Part shown: positions 1 to 14,789 of the stretch, piece after piece
How positions within the stretch are numbered: position 1 is the stretch's first letter
How the letters are laid out: each line of letters opens with the position of its first letter
Assembly (NCBI GenBank): GCA_030765455.1
Contig: JAVCCM010000093.1
Location: 1-14,789 of the forward strand
Direction: 5' to 3'
Source: Candidatus Electryonea clarkiae
GTDB lineage: Bacteria; Electryoneota; Electryoneia; Electryoneales; Electryoneaceae
Length of the DNA: 14,789 bases
The notes under the pieces: model-generated
Database searches by the model: none
Told to the model about the DNA's origin: nothing
Seen by the model: the letters and a program-made list of their open reading frames with translations, nothing else
Program-made: the position numbers and the translations under genes

Positions 1-105
1 TGAAATATCAAGGGAAAGTAAACAGGAGCCGTATACGTGAACCGTACGTACGGTTCTGTGAGAGGGATGAGGCGAAGTAGATCACTCCGCCTCACCCTAC
101 TCGAT
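1..105 (+). mobile_element. Group II intron 3' terminus (domain V, then a domain VI-like hairpin). The intron body and any IEP gene would lie upstream of the window.
   Basis: Positions 26-56, gAGCcguauacgugaaccguacguacgguuc, reproduce the canonical domain V flanks GAGCCGUAU / ACGUACGGUUC. They include the AGC catalytic triad, G-U wobbles and the 2-nt AC bulge (46-47). A GC-rich imperfect hairpin follows (about 63-100, gagggatgaggcg...cgcctcaccc) with an unpaired A, consistent with domain VI. The end coordinate is approximate. Confidence 0.5.
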
Positions 106-227
106 TGTTTTTGTGATGATTCAATCGTAGATATAGTGATTACACTTTGGATGAATCCGCCAAAGGTTGGACAAGCCAAACTTTGTTTTTGCGTATTCAA
201 TAGTTTTGATTCAGGATTTGAAGAACA

Positions 228-263
228 AACCATGTTTGAAATCAAACATGGCCACCCGCCGCC
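228..263. repeat. Direct repeat copy 1 (aaccatgtttgaaatcaaacatggccacccgccgcc). It contains the hairpin ccatgtttga-aa-tcaaacatgg. On the minus strand this reads as hairpin followed by tttgttctt, an intrinsic-terminator-like signal directly after the SIR2 stop.
   Basis: The 30-nt core is identical to 1936-1965. The 10-bp perfect stem is visible in the sequence. It abuts the stop codon of the SIR2 gene (263-265). Confidence 0.8.
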
Positions 264-1798
264 TATATTTGAAAAACCTCATCAATTATTTTATACTTTT
301 TTAAGTCATAAGCGCAAAGTAATTTTCTGTAATTAGTTCCTGTTTTAAGTGAATTGTTGAAATTTCTAAGGAATTCTTCCGTATCTCCTAAAGTGACCTT
401 GTTCTCCATGATTGACCACAATATTGCATTTGTTTTATTGCTTGTGGTTACAGAATCGTCCTCTATAATATCTTGAATTTTTGAGTGTGATGTTTTACAA
501 TTTTCATTAATTTTGCTAAAACTATTTTCAATATTTGAAGATTGTTGTTTTTGTAATTTCTGTATATTTTCTATTTCTGAACATATTTGACCAAATCCAT
601 AAACTGGAAAATATTGCGAACTGTGTATCGTGTGTTTATTGATGAGTGTTAGTAATTGAGAGTTAGATTCATCCAATATGTTGAAATAATTTGACATCAT
701 TTCAGAAGATGTTTGATATTGGTAGCTAATTGTTTTCATTGACCCAATTGCAATTATTTTGTCGCTATTTCTTAGCGTATCCAAGTCTTCTGTGATTTTA
801 ACTTTAATATCTCCGCCTGAATATATTTCTCTTACAATTCTTTGAACTTTGCGTACATCCATGGCAGAAACAGGAAGCGATAATTTAGATAATGATTTAT
901 AAATTTCAATAAAATCGTCCGTTTTTATTTTATTAATTCTTATAGTGGAAAATCCTTCGATATCAATATCATGTTCTGTTATTTCATGTGATAATGAATT
1001 CTTTTCAAATTCTACCAATAGGAAATTTGCTCTGATTCTTTGAGCCTCATCAGAATTAAACTCAACATAGGTGAATATAGTTTTCAACAAACTCTTTATG
1101 TTCTTATCTCCTATGCCATATCCCAAAAATATTATTGGGTTATGAATAAATATCGACAGTAGTTGAGCTCGTATTAATTCATATTTATTTTCAAACAAAT
1201 CATAATCATTTTCAGTTATTATAATTTTCGATGGTTGCGTTGTACAACCATGAATTTTGTAAACAGAACCATAAGGATTACTAAGTAGAATGTCATTACC
1301 AATCAAAGGATTGAATTTAAAAACATTCTTTACAAGAGAGTCATAGTTTGTTGTTATGATAGAACCAATATTTTTTCTTGTTTTTTTAAATTCTGCAATT
1401 TCATCTTTCATTTCTTCTTTAAAATCTAAACATGAATGGATATTTGATATATATATTTTAAACCGACTCAGATTAATTCCTTTGTTCATTTGATCATAAA
1501 AATAATCATTAACATCTTTAAATTTACCATTGCGATCTTTTACCAATGAATCGTTAAAATCGTGTTCTAACAATTGAGCTATTTTATCATATGCAAATAT
1601 TCCGTCGTCTTCACATCTAGACTTTATATCTAAATAATATTCAGAATTATCTTTCAATTCAACAGAGATATATTTTAGCAAGTTATCCCACGTATATGAA
1701 TTATTTAGATATCTTAAACTGATTCCAGTTCCTATGAACAGGACAGGATGATTTCTATATTTAGAAATGAAGTCATGAACATTCATTAATAATCCCAT
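263..1798 (-). CDS. SIR2-like (SIR2_2 / DHS-like NAD-binding) domain protein with an uncharacterised C-terminal domain of about 250 aa. Candidate NADase-type anti-phage defence protein, possibly ThsA-like.
   Basis: The 511-aa ORF has an N-terminal HPVLFIGTGISLRYLNNSYTWDNLLKYIS (the GAG-S / PsW-LL motif of the SIR2_2 family). It also has IITTNYDSLV (catalytic Asn motif), KIHGC (catalytic His) and IIFLGYGIGDKN. Total length and the N-terminal SIR2 plus C-terminal alpha/beta-like region resemble Thoeris ThsA (SIR2-SLOG). The C-terminal domain is not identified. Confidence 0.8.
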   Translation of the reverse strand: MGLLMNVHDFISKYRNHPVLFIGTGISLRYLNNSYTWDNLLKYISVELKDNSEYYLDIKSRCEDDGIFAYDKIAQLLEHDFNDSLVKDRNGKFKDVNDYFYDQMNKGINLSRFKIYISNIHSCLDFKEEMKDEIAEFKKTRKNIGSIITTNYDSLVKNVFKFNPLIGNDILLSNPYGSVYKIHGCTTQPSKIIITENDYDLFENKYELIRAQLLSIFIHNPIIFLGYGIGDKNIKSLLKTIFTYVEFNSDEAQRIRANFLLVEFEKNSLSHEITEHDIDIEGFSTIRINKIKTDDFIEIYKSLSKLSLPVSAMDVRKVQRIVREIYSGGDIKVKITEDLDTLRNSDKIIAIGSMKTISYQYQTSSEMMSNYFNILDESNSQLLTLINKHTIHSSQYFPVYGFGQICSEIENIQKLQKQQSSNIENSFSKINENCKTSHSKIQDIIEDDSVTTSNKTNAILWSIMENKVTLGDTEEFLRNFNNSLKTGTNYRKLLCAYDLKKYKIIDEVFQI

Positions 1799-1935
1799 TG
1801 AAAATTGATCCGTAAAAAATGCGGATTAATTGTTTCCCGTCAGACGAGTGACCCTGTTGGCACCATGCCTACGTTGGATCTCTCAACGTGGTTATATTGT
1901 TATATTCGATAACGTTGATCAAGATTTGTAGAATA

Positions 1936-1973
1936 AACCATGTTTGAAATCAAACATGGCCACCCTCCCGCCC
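1936..1973. repeat. Direct repeat copy 2 (aaccatgtttgaaatcaaacatggccaccctcccgccc), immediately followed by caggttatccca (1974-1985). On the minus strand it is a terminator-like hairpin followed by tttattcta, after the stop of the 186-aa gene.
   Basis: 30/30 identity to copy 1, then a near-identical GC tail. It lies 14 nt 3' of the stop of ORF 1987..2547. Confidence 0.8.
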
Positions 1974-1986
1974 AGGTTATCCCAGG

Positions 1987-2547
1987 CTATGTTACTTGAA
2001 ATATTTGATCGTAAAGATCATACAAATGTGTAGTACCTAATTCTTCTAAAGTTACACTGCTATTCCAATTTAATTCGTGATGATCAAATGATTCATCATT
2101 TATTATTGTGTATGTTTTACCGGGTAATTTCAGTTTATGAACAATGCCAAAGCGTTCCCATTTCGTAATAAAGCGATCATGGGACAAATTTAAATTATAT
2201 AATTCAGAAGTAGAAAAATTTTCAATCTTTGAGGAAAGTTTAAAAGATGGTGCGACAAATAGTATTATTTTTGGTTTCAAAATGAGATCATTATAACTGA
2301 TATTTACTATGTCTGCTCCCAAACTTTTTGCGTAAATATATGTATCTTCCTCTGATTCAACTCGATCATTATAGAATTTTTTAAAGGAATAACAAGCATA
2401 TTTCATCATTATATTTGATGGGATTCCGGACCACATAAATCGGTGACAACTAAATCCAAATGGTTCAAAATGTTCTGAGAGTGTTTTCATCCACATTAAG
2501 GTAGATTTTCGTACTATTGCTCCAGGAAGTATAATCAATTGACTCAT
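1987..2547 (-). CDS. Hypothetical 186-aa soluble protein with no recognisable domain. Translationally coupled to the upstream membrane protein.
   Basis: ORF with an ATGA start/stop overlap with 2544..3644. No signal peptide or TM segment. I see no TIR, Macro or nuclease motif with confidence. Confidence 0.6.
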   Translation of the reverse strand: MSQLIILPGAIVRKSTLMWMKTLSEHFEPFGFSCHRFMWSGIPSNIMMKYACYSFKKFYNDRVESEEDTYIYAKSLGADIVNISYNDLILKPKIILFVAPSFKLSSKIENFSTSELYNLNLSHDRFITKWERFGIVHKLKLPGKTYTIINDESFDHHELNWNSSVTLEELGTTHLYDLYDQIFQVT

Positions 2548-3644
2548 TTTAATACTTTTTGTTTAAATAATTCGGAAAGCAGACTTACTACGAAGGGGGA
2601 TAGTAAAGGTAGCAGAAGCATTGTGTAAACATTCGCAAATAGCTTGAATTCAAACAATCGGGAATCAGTTTTTTGCAGCCCCTCATAGATAGTAAAAAAT
2701 CCTTGGTTTTTCAAGGTTTGAATTCTTCCAACAAAGTCGGACGATTTTAAATCCAAGGTGTTTATTCCATATTTACTGAATGTTTCTTTAACTGCATCAT
2801 CTTTGAATCGATTGAGCAAAACCTTTATCGGTTTGAAATACATTAAAAGGATAATTGGACTTAGAAGGAAAAATCCAAAAATCATCATTAGTAACTCTGG
2901 ATCTCCAAATAAGGTTTCAAGAGAAAATGTATCTTCCCAATTAAGAAATATGATAAGAAAATAGAATCCAAATATTGAATATATCATTACAATCCTTTGT
3001 CCAAGTCTAATTAAATTTTCAAGACCACATTTTTCATCTGGGAATAGTAATTTTGGTACTAAAACTGATTTATTGCATATATTTCGAACGAATCTTGCGA
3101 AAAAAATCGTATCAATGATTAGAATAATTAAATGATATGCGATGATTGCAAAGATTACTGCGTAATACCAACCACATACTGTAGGATTTCCATCTATTAG
3201 ATGGACATAATTAACATCTGCATTTTGTCCACCAAGCTGGATGATAGTGAATAAAAATACTATTGCCACAACTTCGATGTTAGCAAATATTGAATATTTA
3301 AGAGAAACTATTTTTCCATACTTAGTTCTATTAGGAATATCTAAAATGCCATTTGTTTCAAGATCTCCAAATACTTTTGATGTATCTTTGTAAAAACGTG
3401 ATGCTTGGTAAAAAAGTGCAGGAATCAGAAGGGTTCCTCCTACTAAAATAGTCAAATGGTCAATCAGGGGTTTCTCAATTTCAGCACTTGGAAGTAATGT
3501 TCCTTCAAACATTGAGATTATTACCTGGATGATAAAAGTAAGAAAAAATACAATAAATGTTAAAAGCCAAGAGGAGGGAGATATGACAACTTTGTCATAT
3601 ATTGGTGATCTCAGGAAGCGTCCATTAAATACTTTTTCAGGCAT
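2544..3644 (-). CDS. Hypothetical polytopic inner-membrane protein (about 7-8 predicted TM helices), family unknown.
   Basis: The 366-aa ORF has multiple 20-25-residue hydrophobic stretches (e.g. SWLLTFIVFFLTFIIQVIISMF, IEVVAIVFLFTIIQLGG, YYAVIFAIIAYHLIILIIDTIFF, LLMMIFGFFLLSPIILLMYF, VYTMLLLPLLSPFVVSLLSELF). Its stop overlaps the start of the 186-aa gene (ATGA at 2544-2547). No Abi/CAAX or other motifs recognised. Confidence 0.65.
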   Translation of the reverse strand: MPEKVFNGRFLRSPIYDKVVISPSSWLLTFIVFFLTFIIQVIISMFEGTLLPSAEIEKPLIDHLTILVGGTLLIPALFYQASRFYKDTSKVFGDLETNGILDIPNRTKYGKIVSLKYSIFANIEVVAIVFLFTIIQLGGQNADVNYVHLIDGNPTVCGWYYAVIFAIIAYHLIILIIDTIFFARFVRNICNKSVLVPKLLFPDEKCGLENLIRLGQRIVMIYSIFGFYFLIIFLNWEDTFSLETLFGDPELLMMIFGFFLLSPIILLMYFKPIKVLLNRFKDDAVKETFSKYGINTLDLKSSDFVGRIQTLKNQGFFTIYEGLQKTDSRLFEFKLFANVYTMLLLPLLSPFVVSLLSELFKQKVLK

Positions 3645-3855
3645 TTTTATATTTCTTTACTCATATATTTTATACATAACATGTCTTCAGCGGATTGAGT
3701 GGTCATACATATAGGTGTTGGAATCATATTCCTACTATCCTATTCAGAAGATTCTGATGTAGCACCATCTTTTTCTAATCTACAACTGAATTATCTGGTA
3801 CACGGTTGCTCGATCAGACAATTGATTGTCTAGTTAATCAATCTTGTCAACTTTC

Positions 3856-4113
3856 CTAGTCTGGTGGACCTATATCTTTTCTCTCTACTTTATCGACTGT
3901 ATCTACCGATTGCATATTACCCGGTGTTTCTGGATGTTTTTGGGTGTCTTCCATTACCCAGTTGGGGAGATCGAGTCCTTCCAGGTTCCGGATATTCTTC
4001 AAGCCGGAGAAAGTACCCCATAAACCGTTAACGAATTCGGCAGTGTTAGTCTTGCCGCTATCCCTGTTGCCGCCAAGGTTATCCCATGCTTCATTCCTAT
4101 TTTTGTATCGCAT
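3856..4113 (-). pseudogene. Orphan C-terminal fragment of flotillin (a duplicate of the 3' end of the gene at 5602..7062).
   Basis: The translated fragment ...WDNLGGNRDSGKTNTAEFVNGLWGTFSGLKNIRNLEGLDLPNWVMEDTQKHP... aligns to residues about 407-460 of the intact flotillin (VVWDNLGGGRDSGKTNTAEFVNGLWGTFPGLKNVLNMVGLDLPNWVMEDTQKHP). There is no SPFH domain or TM segment. Homology starts abruptly at 4087. Confidence 0.75.
3932..4087. repeat. Imperfect direct repeat copy A (about 156 bp, about 88% identical to 5696-5851), derived from the flotillin 3' coding region. It ends in ccgccaaggttatccca.
   Basis: By-eye alignment shows the first about 41 nt identical, a diverged middle, a 31-nt identical block ataaaccgttaacgaattcggcagtgttagt, then an identical 18-nt end. 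Confidence 0.8.
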
Positions 4114-4534
4114 GTAAAATCTTCAATTTTATCTCTTCTGAATCGAACTTGCCATTGATCAAAGCTGTTATTATTTCCAACAGTAGATCTTTATCAATTC
4201 GACCTGCAGCGACATGGTAACTGATATTTTCCATTTCTCGAATAAAACTTCCAGCGATGAATAGATATCCATTAAGTAACAAAAATTGTGCCCCGAGGGA
4301 AATTGCTATTCTTTTATTTCCATCTTGAAAGCAGTGAAACTTGTTTGCCGAGTAAAACAAATGTGTAAGTTTCTCCTCGAAAGTAGAGTAATAAACGTCA
4401 TTCTGAATATGCTCAAGAACACTGTCCAGTAAGCCTATATCCATGAGGCCATCAGCACCTCCTCCACTAACCTCAACAGTTTTCTTATGAATCTCAACTG
4501 CCTGGTCGAGAGTGGGATAAATAATTCTCCTCAC
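4097..4534 (-). CDS. doc: Doc (death-on-curing) / Fic-family toxin.
   Basis: 145 aa. HCFQDGNKRIAISLGAQFLL matches the Doc Fic motif H-x-F-x-D-x-N-K-R (P1 Doc: HIFNDANKRTA). The N-terminal LDQAVEIHKKTVEVSGGGADGLMDIGLLDSVLEHIQ resembles the Doc N-terminus. There is a 4-bp overlap with the upstream gene. Confidence 0.8.
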   Translation of the reverse strand: MRRIIYPTLDQAVEIHKKTVEVSGGGADGLMDIGLLDSVLEHIQNDVYYSTFEEKLTHLFYSANKFHCFQDGNKRIAISLGAQFLLLNGYLFIAGSFIREMENISYHVAAGRIDKDLLLEIITALINGKFDSEEIKLKILHAIQK

Positions 4535-5550
4535 TCTCGTTCCTTCAATCGTTTGAATACATCTTTTGCCTCTTCAAGTCGTTCAGCAAGCTCTTTACTT
4601 TTTTCGCCAAGAAAACGCTCAAATTCATCGGATTGAAGCGGCGTGATATACTCCTTCAGTTGAAGATGTAATGCATCACGAAAAGCCAGATCGCGACTTG
4701 CCATCTTCTGCCGTGCTCGCTCGATGAGAGGCTTCCAGTGAGGTTGGGATTCAAATTCTGAGAATAGATGATCAACTTCCCAGGAGTCCAGTTTTCTATC
4801 TACCTTGTAAAATGCTTCCTCTAATGCTTTAGCAAACCCATATTCATACGATGAAATAAGATCAAGAATTTCGGAGTAAAACGTGTCTCGTACTTTTTCA
4901 TTTGCTTGTAATTTCAAAATATTGCGATACTCTTCAGCATTTTCACGGAATATACTTAGATAGATTTTATTCGTATAGATTGGGTACTTGATGTTTCCCA
5001 TATCTACAAAATCACGTAATGCGTCTGTAAACTCCTTACGGTAGTCTTCCTCCTGAAAATATGCTATGATGAAATCTTCATCGCGTTGGTTGATATATTT
5101 GGTGCCTCCGCCTGATTTTATATTGATTGTATCAATAACAATATCAAGTATTGTCTGTCGAAGCAGCCTGGCTCGTTCGCTTTCTGTTAGCAACATTGCT
5201 ATATTCAAAAATGCCCGGAAATTGAATGCCCCTAATCGTGTAGTTTTGGTAGGGACATTGATGTCCTTACCAAACTGTCCCTCTACAGCTAACATGAAGG
5301 TACTCAGCCGTTTCCCTCGAAGAACCACGTAACCGTTTTTTGTCAATTCATCGGAATATTTGCCGATATATCGATTCACGGTTCGAATGTCGATTTCAAA
5401 AAATGCAGCTACTTGCTCTCTTATAACCCAGTATGAATTTTCAAACTTGATGCCTTTGATCTCTACTGCATTTTGGATTTCTTTCAGGGCATAGGGATTA
5501 TTAAGAACATTTTGCCTGTCTATTTGTGATTGTGTAAGATTCTTATTCAT
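4531..5550 (-). CDS. RhuM-like (virulence protein RhuM family; ORF6N/KilA-N-type DNA-binding N-terminus) protein. Probable partner or antitoxin-like component for Doc.
   Basis: 339 aa. VIREQVAAFFEIDIRTVNRYIGKY resembles the RhuM-family motif (approximately LMAELFQKDVRTINEHLKNIY). The size is typical of RhuM (about 340 aa). It is translationally coupled (ATGA-type overlap at 4531-4534) to doc. The family assignment rests on recall of the family consensus, not on a search. Confidence 0.55.
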   Translation of the reverse strand: MNKNLTQSQIDRQNVLNNPYALKEIQNAVEIKGIKFENSYWVIREQVAAFFEIDIRTVNRYIGKYSDELTKNGYVVLRGKRLSTFMLAVEGQFGKDINVPTKTTRLGAFNFRAFLNIAMLLTESERARLLRQTILDIVIDTINIKSGGGTKYINQRDEDFIIAYFQEEDYRKEFTDALRDFVDMGNIKYPIYTNKIYLSIFRENAEEYRNILKLQANEKVRDTFYSEILDLISSYEYGFAKALEEAFYKVDRKLDSWEVDHLFSEFESQPHWKPLIERARQKMASRDLAFRDALHLQLKEYITPLQSDEFERFLGEKSKELAERLEEAKDVFKRLKERE

Positions 5551-5601: not shown

Positions 5602-7062
5602 CTAGCTTTCCTCGTCCACTGTTTCAGATGAATGCATATTTTCTTTCTTCACTTCAGCTGGAGTATCCGCAGTTGCTGTTGTAGCTTGCGTAGCCGGATG
5701 TTTTTGGGTGTCTTCCATTACCCAGTTGGGGAGATCCAATCCTACCATGTTCAGGACATTTTTTAAGCCGGGGAAAGTACCCCATAAACCGTTAACGAAT
5801 TCGGCAGTGTTAGTTTTGCCGCTATCCCTGCCGCCGCCAAGGTTATCCCAGACTACGACATTACTCAGATCAAGACCCTGTACCGTATCACCTACAATTT
5901 TGGTTAAATCGGTGATCTTGTCGGCGATCATCAGTTGTACAGCGCGGTCAGGATCATTACCTGCGGCGTTGACGATCTCCTTCAAACCATTAGCTGTTTT
6001 TTCAAGGATTTCAAATGCACCGCGTCCCTGGGCTTCCATCTTGGCGAATATGGCGTCTGCTTCACCCTTCGCCTCACGGCGTAATTTCTCAGCTTCAGCT
6101 TCGGCAGCTATTTCGATCTTCTGTTTGTTGATTTCAGCCGGGACAACATCCTCTGCACGTTGACGGGCACGTTCCATATCGGCACGGGAATCCTCAGCTT
6201 TTTGCTCTGCCTGGAAGGCTTCCCTTTCGGCGTCAGCCTGCTTGGTACGTTCGGCGGCGTAACCAAGTCTCTCAGCTTCCGCGACCTTTTCACGACGTTG
6301 GGCGTTACTGTTTTCCTCGGTTACTTTGGCAACGTTTTCACCTGTCACCGCATCAGCGTTGGCACTGGCGACGTTGACGCGCTGATCACGTACAGCGTTG
6401 GCGCGTCCTACCTCACCATCACGTTCCTGCTCGGCGACTTTTATCTTCGCTTCGTTGATCGCGCGAGCCGCGGCTTCCTTACCAAGGGCTTCGATATATC
6501 CGCTTTCGTCCTTGATATCGGTGATATTCACATTGATCAGTTTCAAACCGATCTTTTTCAGCTCTGTTTCAACGCTCTGCGTGATATTCTGGACGAATTT
6601 ATCACGGTCAACATTGATTTCTTCGATTCTCATGGTAGCGATAACACTACGGAGCTGACCGAGGATGATCTCTTCAGCGAGGGCTTCAACCTGGGTGTGT
6701 TTCAGGCCGAGGAGACGTTCAGCGGCATTGCTCATTATCGCCAGGGTGGTGGAGATACCTACAGTGAACACCGAAGGAACGTCAACACGAATATTCTGCA
6801 AACTCAACGCTCCCCGAAGATTGATTCCAATCTGCATCGGGCTGAGGCTGAGGAACTGGTAAGACTGGATCAGTGGCCAGATGAATGCTGTTCCGCCATG
6901 AATGCATTGAGAGCTGCGTGACTCGCCGTCACTGCCCTTTCCGACCTTTCCGTAAACGACAAGTACCTGGTCACTCGGGCAGCGTTTTACCCGGCTTAAT
7001 GTGGCAATAAGTAAAGAAAATGCAAGAATAAAAATAACTACAAGTGCGGTTAAACCAATCAT
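5602..7062 (-). CDS. yqiK: Flotillin / SPFH (band 7) domain protein, YqiK-like.
   Basis: 486 aa. It has an N-terminal TM segment (LTALVVIFILAFSLLIATL) and an SPFH region. A long Ala/Glu/Lys/Arg-rich coiled-coil (AEAERLGYAAERTKQADAEREAFQAEQKAED...EAEAEKLRREAKGEADAI) is typical of flotillins. It sits downstream of an NfeD-like gene, as in yqiJ-yqiK. Confidence 0.85.
   Translation of the reverse strand: MIGLTALVVIFILAFSLLIATLSRVKRCPSDQVLVVYGKVGKGSDGESRSSQCIHGGTAFIWPLIQSYQFLSLSPMQIGINLRGALSLQNIRVDVPSVFTVGISTTLAIMSNAAERLLGLKHTQVEALAEEIILGQLRSVIATMRIEEINVDRDKFVQNITQSVETELKKIGLKLINVNITDIKDESGYIEALGKEAAARAINEAKIKVAEQERDGEVGRANAVRDQRVNVASANADAVTGENVAKVTEENSNAQRREKVAEAERLGYAAERTKQADAEREAFQAEQKAEDSRADMERARQRAEDVVPAEINKQKIEIAAEAEAEKLRREAKGEADAIFAKMEAQGRGAFEILEKTANGLKEIVNAAGNDPDRAVQLMIADKITDLTKIVGDTVQGLDLSNVVVWDNLGGGRDSGKTNTAEFVNGLWGTFPGLKNVLNMVGLDLPNWVMEDTQKHPATQATTATADTPAEVKKENMHSSETVDEES
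5696..5851. repeat. Imperfect direct repeat copy B (within the intact flotillin 3' coding region), ending in ccgccaaggttatccca.
   Basis: See copy A. The repeat encodes WDNLGGG...HP of the intact flotillin. Confidence 0.8.
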
Positions 7063-11228: not shown

Positions 11229-12401
11229 CTAAAAAGAAATACCAAATTCAATCCATTCAGTATTAGTTACAGGGTGACCTTCGCCTGCATCCCAAAATGA
11301 TTTTGAATAATTGATATTCGTCCTTGTCATTATTAATTTGTAAAACTTTCCGTAAGATTTCCCCTGTTTTTGTGATCTGGTATATAGATAATTTGTTATT
11401 CCATTGCTCTTGATTGTGAAACCAGAGGTGGCGTTGAAGAGTGATCCCCAGGTATCATAGTAATTACCCCATCTGTATAAAAACGAATTAAAGAAATTGA
11501 CCTCGCGTCCTACACCTCCGGTGTTTATCCACTCTTTGCTAACATTGTGTACTTTTTGTTTGTTGAAATCCTGTGCATATATAAATGAGAATAGATGGTA
11601 ATCCGGCAGCTCACAGCGAAACTCAAGTCCATATCCCTTTCGTTTTATCGCTGGAAGTGGAACATTATATTGTAAATCACAGCCCAAATTTGAGTTTGAA
11701 TAACCGTAACTTGGAATGATATCGACCCTAAAAGGTTTTATTGATTCCAGCGGTTTATAATTAAATACTTCAGTGAGTGCATTGTTTAGCGGTAAACGAA
11801 AAAGGACACCCCAATCATATGCTTCAGCGCTTTGATCATTTTCTTCGTAAGAATGAAAATCCGCCCGGTGTAATTTGATTGCGTCAGATTTGTATCCCAC
11901 TCCCATTTCGATGAAATGTCGTAATCCGACAGACAAGGCATAGGATTCATTTTTATCCCAAGGTTCAATCTGGTAAATAAGATCCCCTTCATTATTCCAG
12001 ACTTCAACTCTACCGAGATTTAAAAAGCTTCGGGAATATTCAATCCCGATTGAAATCTGCCTTGTTCTCTCACCTTCCTCTTTATAGAAAGTCCAGCCAG
12101 CAAATAAGCTTGTATAATTAAAATAGAGGTCGTCTATCTTAAATGCTGGCAAATAATCAACATAAGAATGTGATGCTGCAAAGTTGTGGTCAAGGCTGAA
12201 TATTCCCATACTTCCGGGATTAAAATGACCTGACATTGGATCAACCAGCGCAGTTTGAGCTTCACCCATACCTGTTGCCCTGGCGCCAGGTGAAATGAGT
12301 AAAAAGAAAGGAGCAGTCTCATTGATATGGGTTTCTCCATTGGATACAATCGGGAGGAGTGTAATCAGGGTAATCAAGAAAAGAAGATAACCGTACCTCA
12401 T
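11229..12401 (-). CDS. Outer-membrane beta-barrel protein, FadL/PorV-like (PorV/PorQ-type), paralog 1.
   Basis: Signal peptide from M at 12401 (MRYGYLLFLITLITLLPIVSNG; the longer ORF to 12470 is probably not used). An N-terminal motif PGARATGMGEAQTALVDPMSGHFNPG resembles the FadL-family plug motif (sARalGMGgA..A.aDD.sA...NPAg). An aromatic-rich beta-strand pattern, and a C-terminal ...WIEFGISF with a terminal Phe (OMP signature). About 60-65% identical to paralog 2. Confidence 0.7.
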   Translation of the reverse strand: MRYGYLLFLITLITLLPIVSNGETHINETAPFFLLISPGARATGMGEAQTALVDPMSGHFNPGSMGIFSLDHNFAASHSYVDYLPAFKIDDLYFNYTSLFAGWTFYKEEGERTRQISIGIEYSRSFLNLGRVEVWNNEGDLIYQIEPWDKNESYALSVGLRHFIEMGVGYKSDAIKLHRADFHSYEENDQSAEAYDWGVLFRLPLNNALTEVFNYKPLESIKPFRVDIIPSYGYSNSNLGCDLQYNVPLPAIKRKGYGLEFRCELPDYHLFSFIYAQDFNKQKVHNVSKEWINTGGVGREVNFFNSFLYRWGNYYDTWGSLFNATSGFTIKSNGITNYLYTRSQKQGKSYGKFYKLIMTRTNINYSKSFWDAGEGHPVTNTEWIEFGISF

Positions 12402-12561
12402 AAAAGACAAGATATCTATATCTTTTCGAAGATTTTGAAGAGTAATCAATCTAATAGAATCATTAAGCATTTTACAGTCTTTCCTTGGTTAACTTTTACT
12501 TAAGCGGTTCACTTTGCTAAATTAATCTTATGTGTTAGGGTTTAGATATGAAACCAGCCAG

Positions 12562-13749
12562 TTAAAATGAAATACCAAGTTCTATCCATTCAGTATCAGT
12601 TAAAGGCTGACCTTCGCCTGCGTGAAATAATGATCTGGAATATTTAAAATTCATGCGAGTCATCACGAAATCATACAACTCGCCTTTAGCCCATTCCTGG
12701 TGTTGAGAACTAAGGTGAATGATTTTTAATATTCCGCTACTTTGAAAAGTGAAACCGGTTGTTGATCGTGAAGCTCGTCCCCAGGTGTCATAATAGTTAC
12801 CCCAACGATATATGAAAGAATCGAAGAAAGTAATTTCACGACCTACACCGGATGTTTCTATCCATTCTTTACTCCTGAGATCGGCTCTATCCCTATTAAT
12901 ATCATGAGCATAAATGAAGCCAAGCAACGGAACAACCGGTAGGTCAAAACGAAATTCAAGGGCATACCCACTGCGATGCACTTCCGGGAGAGGATCATCA
13001 TACATCTCATCCCCGCCCAGATTTGATTTTGAAAATCCATAACTTGGGATGAAATCGATTAAGAAGGGATATATTGATTCAGACACATCGTAATGGAGTC
13101 CCTCTTTTAATACAGTATTCGTGGGCAGGCGGATCAATATTCCCCAGTCATAAGCTTTGGCGTTCACTTCATCATCATATTCAGGATTACCAATATTAGA
13201 AAACTCGCTCAGATGGCTCGTGATGTAATTCAATTTATAGCCGATTCCCACTTCAGCCAGGTAGCGAAAACCGATAGAAACGCCGTAAGAGTAATTGTTC
13301 TCCCACGATTCAAAAGAACCTAGGTCTTCGTTGTTTTCACCCCTGCGTTCGGTTTTCCCAAGGTTCAGAAATCGCCTTGTCACTTCAATTCCACCAGATA
13401 TTTCGAGGGGATTATCAGGTTGCTTTTCATACAACTTCCATCCGGCAGATAATTGAGAATAGTTGAGATATAAATCATCTAAATTAAACCTAGGCAACCA
13501 GTCAGCACTGGTATAAGAGTATGAATAATTATGATCAAGACTGAATACACCTTTACTTCCGGCATTAAAGTGCCCCGACATGGGATCGACCAATGCCACC
13601 TGTGCGTCACCCATACCTGTCGCCCTGGCACCCGGAGTTATCAACATAAAACGGGCACTGGCAGCATTAGCGTGATTGTTTGAAAATAATAGAAACAGCA
13701 GAAGAATAAAAATTAATGATCTGGTACTATCGTTTGTGAATATTTTCAT
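12562..13749 (-). CDS. Outer-membrane beta-barrel protein, FadL/PorV-like, paralog 2.
   Basis: A clear signal peptide MKIFTNDSTRSLIFILLLFLLFSNNHANA, PGARATGMGDAQVALVDPMSGHFNAG, and C-terminal WIELGISF. Confidence 0.75.
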   Translation of the reverse strand: MKIFTNDSTRSLIFILLLFLLFSNNHANAASARFMLITPGARATGMGDAQVALVDPMSGHFNAGSKGVFSLDHNYSYSYTSADWLPRFNLDDLYLNYSQLSAGWKLYEKQPDNPLEISGGIEVTRRFLNLGKTERRGENNEDLGSFESWENNYSYGVSIGFRYLAEVGIGYKLNYITSHLSEFSNIGNPEYDDEVNAKAYDWGILIRLPTNTVLKEGLHYDVSESIYPFLIDFIPSYGFSKSNLGGDEMYDDPLPEVHRSGYALEFRFDLPVVPLLGFIYAHDINRDRADLRSKEWIETSGVGREITFFDSFIYRWGNYYDTWGRASRSTTGFTFQSSGILKIIHLSSQHQEWAKGELYDFVMTRMNFKYSRSLFHAGEGQPLTDTEWIELGISF

Positions 13750-13776
13750 ATTATCTCCCGATATTGAGTCAAAAAA

Positions 13777-14789
13777 TTAAAATGAAATACCAAGTTCTAT
13801 CCAAGCGGAATCAGATATATCATAATTGCTGCCTGCTTTCCAGAATGACCTGGAATATTTGAAATTCAGCCGGTTCATTACAAAATTGTACAATTCGCCT
13901 TCAGCCCATTCCTGATCCTGCGTGGCGAGATGAATTATTTTTAGTATTCCTTTACTTTGCAGTGAATAACCCGTTGTGGACTTGAAAAGGTGTCCCTCGG
14001 TGTCATAATAATTACCCCAGCGATAGACGAATGAATCAAAAAACGAGAACTCCCTGCCAACGCCCCCGGTTTTGTATCCATTATCTCCTGAAGGGATGTC
14101 ATACCTGATATCGTTATCTCCTGAAGGGATGTCATACCTGATATCGTTAAAATCCTGGGTGTATATAAAAGCAAGCAAAGGCACAACCGGCAGATCAATT
14201 CGAAATTCCAAAGCATAACCTCTTCGATTTATTTCCGGGAGAGGTTGTCCATATACTTTATTGTCTCCCAGGTTAGAATTCGAATAGCCAAAACTTGGAA
14301 TAATATCAATAGTGAAAGGGTCAATTAACCTTTGAGTATTTATATTATACACCTCTTTCAGTGCATTATTTATCGGCAACCTTAACAGGATACCCCAATC
14401 ATATGCTCTCGCATTACGATCATTCCCGGAATTTGGAAAATTGCTTCCCAAATGTGATGTAATAAAATCAGTTTTGTAACCGATTCCCAACTCGGCGATA
14501 TACCGCAATCCAATCGAAACTCCATAAGTGTAATTCCGCTCCCATAAATTTCCAGTACTAATGATTCCATATAAATCATCTCGCACTACATACTCACCTT
14601 CATCAATAAATCTTTTTGTAACTTCCAGTCCGCCTGATATTTCCAGAGGATATCCAATCCTCTTATTATGTGTGCCCAGCATGGAGTGGACGCCTGATTT
14701 TGTTAATACACCCCGATCTGGGGGAAGTAAAACCGATTGGCAAGGGCGTTGCTGGCAACGGCAGGGTCTGAAGGCAGCCATAGGCAGCA
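13777..14789 (-). CDS. Outer-membrane beta-barrel protein paralog 3, 5'-incomplete or N-terminally replaced (open to the window edge).
   Basis: Homology to paralog 2 runs from about residue 43 (YPLEISGG; about 14655 downward) to the C-terminal WIELGISF. The region 14660-14789 is unrelated to the paralog N-termini (no signal peptide, no PGARATGMG motif) and the frame stays open to the end of the window. It contains an in-frame 33-bp tandem duplication. Confidence 0.6.
   Translation of the reverse strand, partial: LPMAAFRPCRCQQRPCQSVLLPPDRGVLTKSGVHSMLGTHNKRIGYPLEISGGLEVTKRFIDEGEYVVRDDLYGIISTGNLWERNYTYGVSIGLRYIAELGIGYKTDFITSHLGSNFPNSGNDRNARAYDWGILLRLPINNALKEVYNINTQRLIDPFTIDIIPSFGYSNSNLGDNKVYGQPLPEINRRGYALEFRIDLPVVPLLAFIYTQDFNDIRYDIPSGDNDIRYDIPSGDNGYKTGGVGREFSFFDSFVYRWGNYYDTEGHLFKSTTGYSLQSKGILKIIHLATQDQEWAEGELYNFVMNRLNFKYSRSFWKAGSNYDISDSAWIELGISF
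14081..14146. repeat. Perfect 33-bp tandem duplication (2 copies of ttatctcctgaagggatgtcatacctgatatcg), in frame within paralog 3, encoding DIRYDIPSGDN twice.
   Basis: Copy 1 is 14081-14113 and copy 2 is 14114-14146, identical at all 33 positions. The protein shows FNDIRYDIPSGDNDIRYDIPSGDNGYK, in a segment that is variable between paralogs. Confidence 0.9.

Follow-up and report, generated by a model that had tools for sequence, protein, structure and literature searches.

A paired membrane protein and predicted minimal alpha/beta hydrolase of Candidatus Electryonea clarkiae as a candidate defence module

What is the role of two overlapping genes, both annotated at NCBI as "hypothetical" (locus tags P9L92_11565 and P9L92_11560), that lie in a segment of low guanine-plus-cytosine (GC) content in Candidatus Electryonea clarkiae? 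This bacterium, which belongs to the FCB (Fibrobacteres–Chlorobi–Bacteroidetes) superphylum, was described from Ace Lake, Antarctica (PMC9324843). The stretch of DNA analysed here (the window, 14,789 nucleotides (nt) long) is nearly the entire 14,833-nt contig of a metagenome-assembled genome of this organism. The pair is composed of a gene for a membrane protein of 366 amino acids (aa) and a gene for a soluble protein of 186 aa, here called the mini-hydrolase, which is confidently predicted to adopt an alpha/beta-hydrolase fold. Judged from the anti-phage genes around it in this locus and in unrelated metagenomes, the pair appears to be a credible candidate for a new defence module. An initial annotation had suggested an undescribed two-gene module of abortive-infection type or, alternatively, a partnership with an adjacent SIR2 gene; the existence of a real, coupled pair is borne out by its conservation in a second contig, and the partnership is made unlikely by the layout of the locus.

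The overlapping gene pair and its relatives

2544–3644, minus strand: membrane-protein gene, open reading frame (ORF) of 366 aa with about seven predicted transmembrane (TM) helices, predicted to lie in the inner membrane
1987–2547, minus strand: mini-hydrolase gene, ORF of 186 aa without hydrophobic spans
2544–2547, minus strand: ATGA stop/start overlap, in which the downstream ATG (2547–2545) overlaps the upstream TGA (2546–2544)

The minus-strand sequence across the overlap (...TTAAAATGAGTCAA) implies that both genes would be translationally coupled. The ORFs are located where the initial annotation had placed them. The pair is also present, again overlapping by ATGA, on a metagenomic contig of 1,750 nt (L001), whose proteins are 54% (membrane protein) and 65% (small protein) identical to those of the window. 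Synonymous sites are saturated between both copies (proportion of synonymous differences, pS, ~0.8), while the proportion of nonsynonymous differences (pN) is 0.21–0.28 (pN/pS of 0.28/0.80 for the membrane protein and 0.21/0.77 for the 186-aa protein), and both ORFs are genuine genes under purifying selection. That they could be chance ORFs or decayed pseudogenes in AT-rich DNA might be thought because their relatives come only from uncultured metagenomes and because one homologous membrane-protein gene (L007, 8908–10004, on a 501-kb contig) is frameshifted into ORFs of 122 and 244 aa, either as a pseudogene or through an assembly error. This explanation retains next to no probability, being refuted by conserved pairs that are 27–65% identical over several lineages of widely different GC, by the low pN with saturated pS and by the confident structural model described below.

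Kyte–Doolittle hydropathy gives about seven spans in the 366-aa protein (residues ~25–45, 62–79, 120–137, 157–180, 216–236, 250–270 and 336–357) and none in the 186-aa protein, in agreement with the seven to eight helices and the soluble partner of the initial annotation. Lys/Arg-rich loops alternate with Lys/Arg-poor ones in the membrane protein, which fits an N-terminus located inside and a 65-residue cytoplasmic loop (residues 271–335). An exhaustive HMMER search of 1.84 billion (1.84e9) representative proteins returned 15 matches, including the query itself and one spurious eukaryotic repeat protein; the 7-TM relatives comprise five close ones (27–42% identity, plus an N-terminal fragment, P0010) and seven distant ones (~20%). 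The protein matched no entry in Pfam, NCBIfam, PADLOC or PHROGs, its family matched none in Pfam or among PDB sequences (searched with a 13-sequence profile), and the lack of transporter, CAAX/Abi, kinase or nuclease matches noted initially was reproduced for the pair in Pfam, NCBIfam, PHROGs and PADLOC. Conserved throughout the family are P263, P272, K281 and, behind TM4, a loop predicted to be cytoplasmic, (H/F)PDxxxG(L), in which D203 and G207 are invariant; the close subfamily has, additionally, a NYxHxxxGxxTxCGxYY stretch ahead of TM4. By these comparisons, the 366-aa protein belongs to a new, rare membrane family. Identity as a CPBP/CAAX (Abi) protease was considered and rejected, as no Pfam Rce1-like match was found in the 7-TM protein or its 12 relatives.

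The mini-hydrolase gene is located behind a membrane-protein gene at every locus where upstream DNA could be read, mostly with a 4-nt overlap, ATGA or GTGA, which recurs in L001, L003, the P0005 contigs, L004 (GTGA), L007, L012, L013, L015 and L016. The partner is of the 7-TM type at six loci (window, L001, L003, P0005 contigs, L004 and L007) and of a second type, with two TM helices (type B), at L008, L012, L013, L015 and L016 by sequence and at L009 and L010 by gene layout. Type-B partners are ~296–309 aa long and combine a pair of TM helices at the N-terminus with a soluble domain that is conserved among them; they are unannotated, with no match in Pfam, PADLOC or PDB (the latter searched with a 5-sequence profile), and no relationship between them and the 7-TM family was found with hhalign. 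The membrane partners of the mini-hydrolase are interchangeable. The 7-TM family, for its part, recurs beside alpha/beta hydrolases: one distant relative (P0017) has a Pfam-recognisable alpha/beta hydrolase 44 nt downstream on three contigs, another (P0012) has one ~300 nt upstream, and two others have no partner. As the mini-hydrolase is always accompanied by a membrane-protein gene and distant 7-TM proteins lie beside alpha/beta hydrolases, the link holds in both directions.

L008 9115–10044, L012 272–1162, L013 9045–9962, L015 415–1305, L016 1961–2851: type-B partner genes
L019 9354–11790, L020, L021, L022 776–2623: distant 7-TM relatives beside Abhydrolase_1/Hydrolase_4 genes (an Rce1-like gene then follows in L019 and L020)

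As a separate observation, an ORF upstream of the type-B pair in L016 (307–1170) gave a weak match to Pfam Abi_alpha, the abortive infection alpha family, with a score of 17.8 bits (E 0.0035) that stays below the cut-off of 29.

The pair is rare. No relatives of either protein were found in scans of 185,579 species-representative genomes, nor were relatives of the pair found in IMG/VR, PLSDB plasmids or GenBank phages (viral scans, with tblastn for plasmids and phages). With some fifteen loci among billions of proteins, the general importance of the pair is limited.

The predicted fold of the mini-hydrolase

Both proteins had initially been described as devoid of recognisable domains. This holds for the 7-TM protein but not for the 186-aa protein, which is predicted to be an alpha/beta hydrolase with a conserved Ser-Asp-His. 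Sequence searches did not reveal it: the 186-aa protein has no match in Pfam, NCBIfam, PHROGs or PADLOC, its 2- and 6-sequence profiles gave nothing significant against PDB sequences, and its relatives (n=6) gave single sub-threshold matches to VirJ (E 0.018) and Abhydrolase_11 (E 0.074) in Pfam. The gathering threshold of curated alpha/beta-hydrolase families (Pfam Abhydrolase_1–11, Ser_hydrolase/YdeN, Lipase_2 and others) was reached neither by the window protein nor by the six relatives. Early signs of the fold were present in the alignment (HG past the first strand, an elbow reading K-S-x-G-A-D and, farther on, a conserved Asp and His-His), and a profile search added three diverged relatives. 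AlphaFold2 gave a mean predicted local distance difference test score (pLDDT) of 31 with a two-sequence alignment, a model that was discarded, and a pLDDT of 92 with a predicted template modelling score (pTM) of 0.90 with the six-sequence alignment. A structure-based search for remote homologues, suggested at the outset, was run with Foldseek for this model, and all of its top matches in PDB were alpha/beta hydrolases, including the minimal XCC1541 (2qjw) and LipA from B. subtilis. The model contains a mostly parallel central beta-sheet with helices on both sides, matching solved alpha/beta hydrolases. The 186-aa protein is thus confidently predicted to have the alpha/beta-hydrolase fold, in a minimal form devoid of a lid; it would be a lipase, an esterase or a thioesterase, and in sequence it appears to be a new family inside this fold. 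The six-sequence alignment revealed the fold where sequence searches were negative, indicating that a negative search is not the last word.

Conservation was read in 10 sequences, 30–65% identical to the window hydrolase. Invariant among them are K74-S75-x-G77-A78-D79, D124 and H156-H157-x-x-N160, which contain the putative triad formed by Ser75 (in an A-K-S-L-G elbow), Asp124 and His156, with His157 invariant too. The nucleophile elbow, (A/C/T)-K-S75-x-G77, lies right behind the strand 69–74 and ahead of the helix 76–87, while D124 follows the strand 115–121 and H156/H157 the strand 144–149 in the predicted model. In the alpha/beta-hydrolase fold the nucleophile, the acid and the histidine sit right after those strands, and the predicted placement of S75, D124 and H156 would be the canonical nucleophile-acid-histidine one. 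G9-A10, W39-S40-G41-I42-P43 and V98-P100 are also invariant, and all of them lie just past strand ends, which in this fold corresponds to the active-site side of the sheet.

The closest proteins by fold are the minimal, lid-less alpha/beta hydrolases Lip_vut1 (6nkc), LipA (1i6w), YdeN (1uxo), XCC1541 (2qjw) and RBBP9 (2qs9), with which the window hydrolase shares only 9–14% sequence identity. Whereas these proteins have a G-x-S-x-G elbow, the window family has (A/C/T)-K-S-x-G-A-D, as well as signatures of its own (WSGIP and HHxLN), and, unlike them, it is always encoded behind a membrane-protein gene. A comparison with hhalign between the hydrolase profile and a Hydrolase_4 protein encoded in the window itself placed the HG motif and the Ser elbow in register (E 0.19, not significant and a hint only), and no relationship was found by the same method with the hydrolase of L019. 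Two other assignments were tried and rejected: an SGNH/GDSL hydrolase, because the N-terminal Ser block and the conserved DxxH are missing, and a secreted lipase with its foldase, because no signal peptide was seen on reading the N-terminus of the hydrolase, which is probably cytoplasmic.

The nearest structural neighbours of the model are lipases, monoacylglycerol lipases and acyl-protein thioesterases. This favours the main rival to a defence role, according to which the pair is a membrane-lipid enzyme, housekeeping or accessory, that travels on mobile DNA, its two proteins forming a complex for envelope maintenance, for example a lysophospholipase, lipid deacylase or lipoprotein esterase. 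Such an explanation seems doubtful on the whole, in view of the distribution already described: a pair so patchy and rare, and absent from all the species genomes scanned, is not what would be expected of such an enzyme, for which a more widespread, syntenic distribution is anticipated.

Architecture of the low-GC island

3645–3855, minus strand: upstream non-coding region of 211 nt, presumed promoter region of the cassette
3856–4113, minus strand: orphan flotillin 3' fragment, 215 nt of which are 81% identical to 5636–5850; upstream cassette edge
1968–1989, minus strand: third WDNLGG junction copy (TGGGATAACCTGGGCGG), abutting the TAG stop of the hydrolase gene; downstream cassette edge
4070–4091: second junction copy, at the start of the orphan flotillin fragment
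5834–5855: junction in the intact flotillin gene
1919–1968, minus strand: terminator-like element of 50 nt, a hairpin (11-bp stem) with a U-rich tail behind it
24–105, plus strand: 3' end (domains V–VI) of a group II intron (Rfam RF00029, 48.1 bits), at the left contig edge

The pair lies, as had been noted initially, between the orphan flotillin fragment and a SIR2 gene (263–1798), which is encoded on the same strand at a distance of 188 nt. GC is ~30–33% over positions 1–3750 and 40–55% farther right in the window. It had also been claimed that two copies of a junction motif bound the segment; the bounding repeats are real, but AGGTTATCCCA is present in three copies (at 1974, 4076 and 5840; 0.01 expected from shuffles), the third of them in the intact flotillin gene. 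There, TGGGATAACCTKGGCGG encodes WDNLGG (5834–5850), and it recurs at 4070–4086, where the 215-nt flotillin-like fragment begins, and at 1968–1984, next to the hydrolase stop codon. The orphan fragment is in-frame, with 85 codons corresponding to the C-terminal part, overlaps the end of a Doc/Fic gene and probably derives from another flotillin allele, earlier or foreign, of which it would be the displaced 3' end. The 50-nt hairpin element is repeated past the SIR2 gene at 211–260 (a direct repeat, 92% identical), a terminator scan matched the latter copy at 228–253, and the RNA fold of 1915–1990 has an energy of −27.7 kcal/mol (z −3.5).

The order on the minus strand is flotillin, PDC-M59A/B, orphan flotillin end, pair, junction and hairpin, SIR2 and hairpin, and this layout of junction and hairpin copies suggests separate units stacked at a single recombination site, so that the region resembles an array of cassettes inserted in tandem by recombination at the 3' end of flotillin. 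No recombinase is visible within the window. The group II intron probably explains why the assembly breaks at the left edge. In the best reading, the pair is a self-contained two-gene cassette of ~1.9 kb (window 3855 to 1987, minus strand) that forms part of a low-GC array of defence-candidate cassettes acquired by horizontal transfer. A perfect palindrome that could be an operator (AGACAAT-CA-ATTGTCT, 3816–3831) is found ahead of the membrane-protein gene. Direct reading of 3645–3855 found no Shine-Dalgarno sequence upstream of the membrane-protein gene, and there is no minus-strand match to the sigma-70 consensus in the same interval. Promoter types other than the sigma-70 consensus are expected in this superphylum.

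The vicinity of the SIR2 gene led to the proposal of a three-gene system in which the pair would act as sensor or signaller and NAD+ would be depleted by SIR2. The shared strand, the short distance and the similarly low GC agree with it, as does a SIR2-domain gene located 5 kb from the pair in L013. It is, however, very unlikely. Between both units lie a copy of the flotillin junction and a stable hairpin resembling a terminator, and the presence of the same 50-nt hairpin past SIR2 indicates that each unit has its own end. Furthermore, the SIR2 protein covers the whole PADLOC model PDC-S25 from end to end (E 4e-159), the S in this name presumably denoting a single-gene candidate, and this full-length match together with the island layout makes it unlikely that the pair works with SIR2. 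The SIR2 protein of L013 is the APAZ partner of a short prokaryotic Argonaute (pAgo), which is a different and complete system, and no SIR2 gene adjoins the pair in L003, L004, L007, L008 or the P0005 contigs (the short L001 contig does not allow a judgement).

Elsewhere in the window (11229–14781, minus strand) there are three tandem paralogous ORFs of 413, 395 and 334 aa without Pfam match, with endings ...ELGISF or ...EFGISF, the third of which has an internal tandem duplication (DIRYDIPSGDN occurs twice). They may be outer-membrane proteins.

Defence neighbours, proposed function and known systems

Four loci (window, L007, L008 and L013) provide a long context, defined as at least 10 kb, and known or candidate defence genes were found beside the pair in all four, although this is a small sample. 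In the window, besides PDC-S25, there is a PDC-M59 cassette (4097–5550, minus strand), in which a 339-aa M59A protein (E 2e-107) overlaps a 145-aa Fic/Doc M59B protein (E 6e-41; NCBIfam DOC_P1). L013 contains a complete short pAgo system (15683–19808), composed of an 885-aa SIR2-APAZ protein (E 2e-273) and a 494-aa short pAgo (E 8e-138), ~5 kb from the pair, which also has PDC-M36A and a PIN_3 toxin gene with an overlapping upstream ORF in its vicinity. PDC-M60A/B/C lie immediately upstream of the pair in L007, and the neighbours in L008 contain TIR/DUF4062, nSTAND-WD40 and SLATT domains (from Pfam, the PADLOC matches being weak). Assuming that ~15% of random genes have a defence neighbour, the probability of four out of four would be ~5e-4, a rough, non-formal estimate from a small sample. 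Ten further neighbouring ORFs had no match in PADLOC. Homologues are thus not the widespread core genes that the initial annotation had considered as the contrary outcome, since they are missing from the species genomes and the long contexts hold defence genes.

A low-GC array of defence candidates, together with related pairs in the defence islands of unrelated organisms, makes an abortive-infection-type role the most likely one. It is tentatively proposed, with a probability somewhat short of even, that the pair forms a membrane-tethered serine esterase/lipase complex that functions as an abortive-infection-type defence module, separate from SIR2. The 7-TM protein and the hydrolase would be translated in tandem and form a membrane-bound complex, in which the membrane subunit could offer two conserved cytoplasmic loops, the HPDxxxGL loop and that of 65 residues (271–335), as a docking site for the hydrolase and might, in addition, control access to the substrate or present it. 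Catalysis would fall to the hydrolase, whose target would be an ester or thioester linkage, either of a membrane lipid or of an acylated, lipid-linked molecule. A trigger sensed at the membrane would unleash the hydrolase or, alternatively, the hydrolase would activate its membrane partner, and membrane damage or growth arrest would follow. The complex, the location of the hydrolase in the cytoplasm, the substrate, the trigger, the effector subunit and the defence phenotype are all inferred.

Several observations weigh against this proposal. The defence function is suggested by neighbourhood only, in four long contexts of which two carry the type-B version, the shorter contexts being uninformative or pointing to lipids. 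Neither protein of the window pair has a match in PADLOC-DB v2.0.0 at E values up to 1, nor do the relatives, type-B partner included, at E up to 0.1. No fold is known for the 7-TM protein. At residue 8, after strand 1, the window hydrolase carries Pro instead of the His that belongs to the HG oxyanion motif in the nine other sequences (PG for HG), so that its activity could be altered, while every other invariant position is intact. The P0005 pair is followed downstream by an Aas/LplT-like fusion (major facilitator superfamily, acyltransferase and AMP-binding domains) and a PAP2-like gene converges on the pair in L004, both being hints of lipid metabolism. Finally, the distant 7-TM relatives, with ordinary hydrolases or with no partner, are not in evident defence islands.

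These last observations are also those which sustain the membrane-lipid enzyme considered above, together with the Rce1-like, AstE/AspA-like and glycosyltransferase neighbours of the distant 7-TM proteins and their hydrolases, and with another distant pairing on a short contig where no defence gene was called. On the other side stand the low-GC cassette array and the defence or conflict genes in all of the long contexts.

A toxin–antitoxin-like or inter-bacterial competition module, in which the toxicity of one protein, perhaps that of the membrane, would be counteracted by the other and which would stabilise the island without any sensing of phage, is a rather improbable alternative. It would account for a tight, coupled two-gene operon on mobile DNA, for the swappable membrane partner and for neighbours of toxin–antitoxin type, such as the Doc/Fic-containing PDC-M59 in the window and PIN_3 with its overlapping ORF in L013. 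However, no similarity to known toxin or antitoxin families was found in the libraries searched, an intact, conserved putative triad is unusual in a simple antitoxin, and the 7-TM family also exists alone, which argues against intrinsic toxicity.

Returning to the abortive-infection-type module, no defence system of this composition is described in PADLOC-DB v2.0.0 or in the literature searched. A system composed of a HAD-like (haloacid dehalogenase) hydrolase and a TM protein, found in the hotspots of P4 satellites, inhibits phage T7, and it was suggested by its authors that it could act by abortive infection (Rousset et al. 2022, PMC9122126). This is the nearest described system by architecture, a small hydrolase and a multi-TM protein in a defence hotspot, but its hydrolase has the HAD fold instead of the alpha/beta-hydrolase fold and the membrane proteins are unrelated, so the likeness is one of analogy and not of homology. 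Patatin-like CapV, from the cyclic-oligonucleotide-based antiphage signalling system (CBASS), is a serine lipid hydrolase that acts on the membrane of its own cell as a suicide effector; patatin has a fold other than alpha/beta hydrolase and a Ser-Asp dyad, and it is activated by a cyclic nucleotide made by a cyclase. The idea is similar, but no cyclase or other signal-generating gene accompanies the pair. The candidates PDC-S25 and PDC-M59, from the same island, and PDC-M60 and PDC-M36, which flank homologues, rest on the same kind of evidence, membership of defence islands, and they are included in PADLOC-DB v2.0.0, whereas the window pair is not.

If the pair protects against phage, the defence repertoire would gain a serine hydrolase that has a lipase/esterase fold and acts together with a membrane partner, and a function would be provided for three unannotated families (the mini-hydrolase, the 7-TM partner and the 2-TM partner), while partner swapping offers a clean test case of which subunit senses and which kills. 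A bolder and more speculative extension, which is plausible but less likely than not, is that the mini-hydrolase could be the constant core of an unrecognised class of membrane-coupled abortive-infection systems, with interchangeable 7-TM or 2-TM-plus-domain partners, carried as a promoter-to-terminator cassette in a tandem array recombined into the 3' end of flotillin. Were this true, phage defence would acquire an enzymatic logic of esterase/lipase type, three protein families would be new to it, and a hotspot of a novel kind would be recognised.

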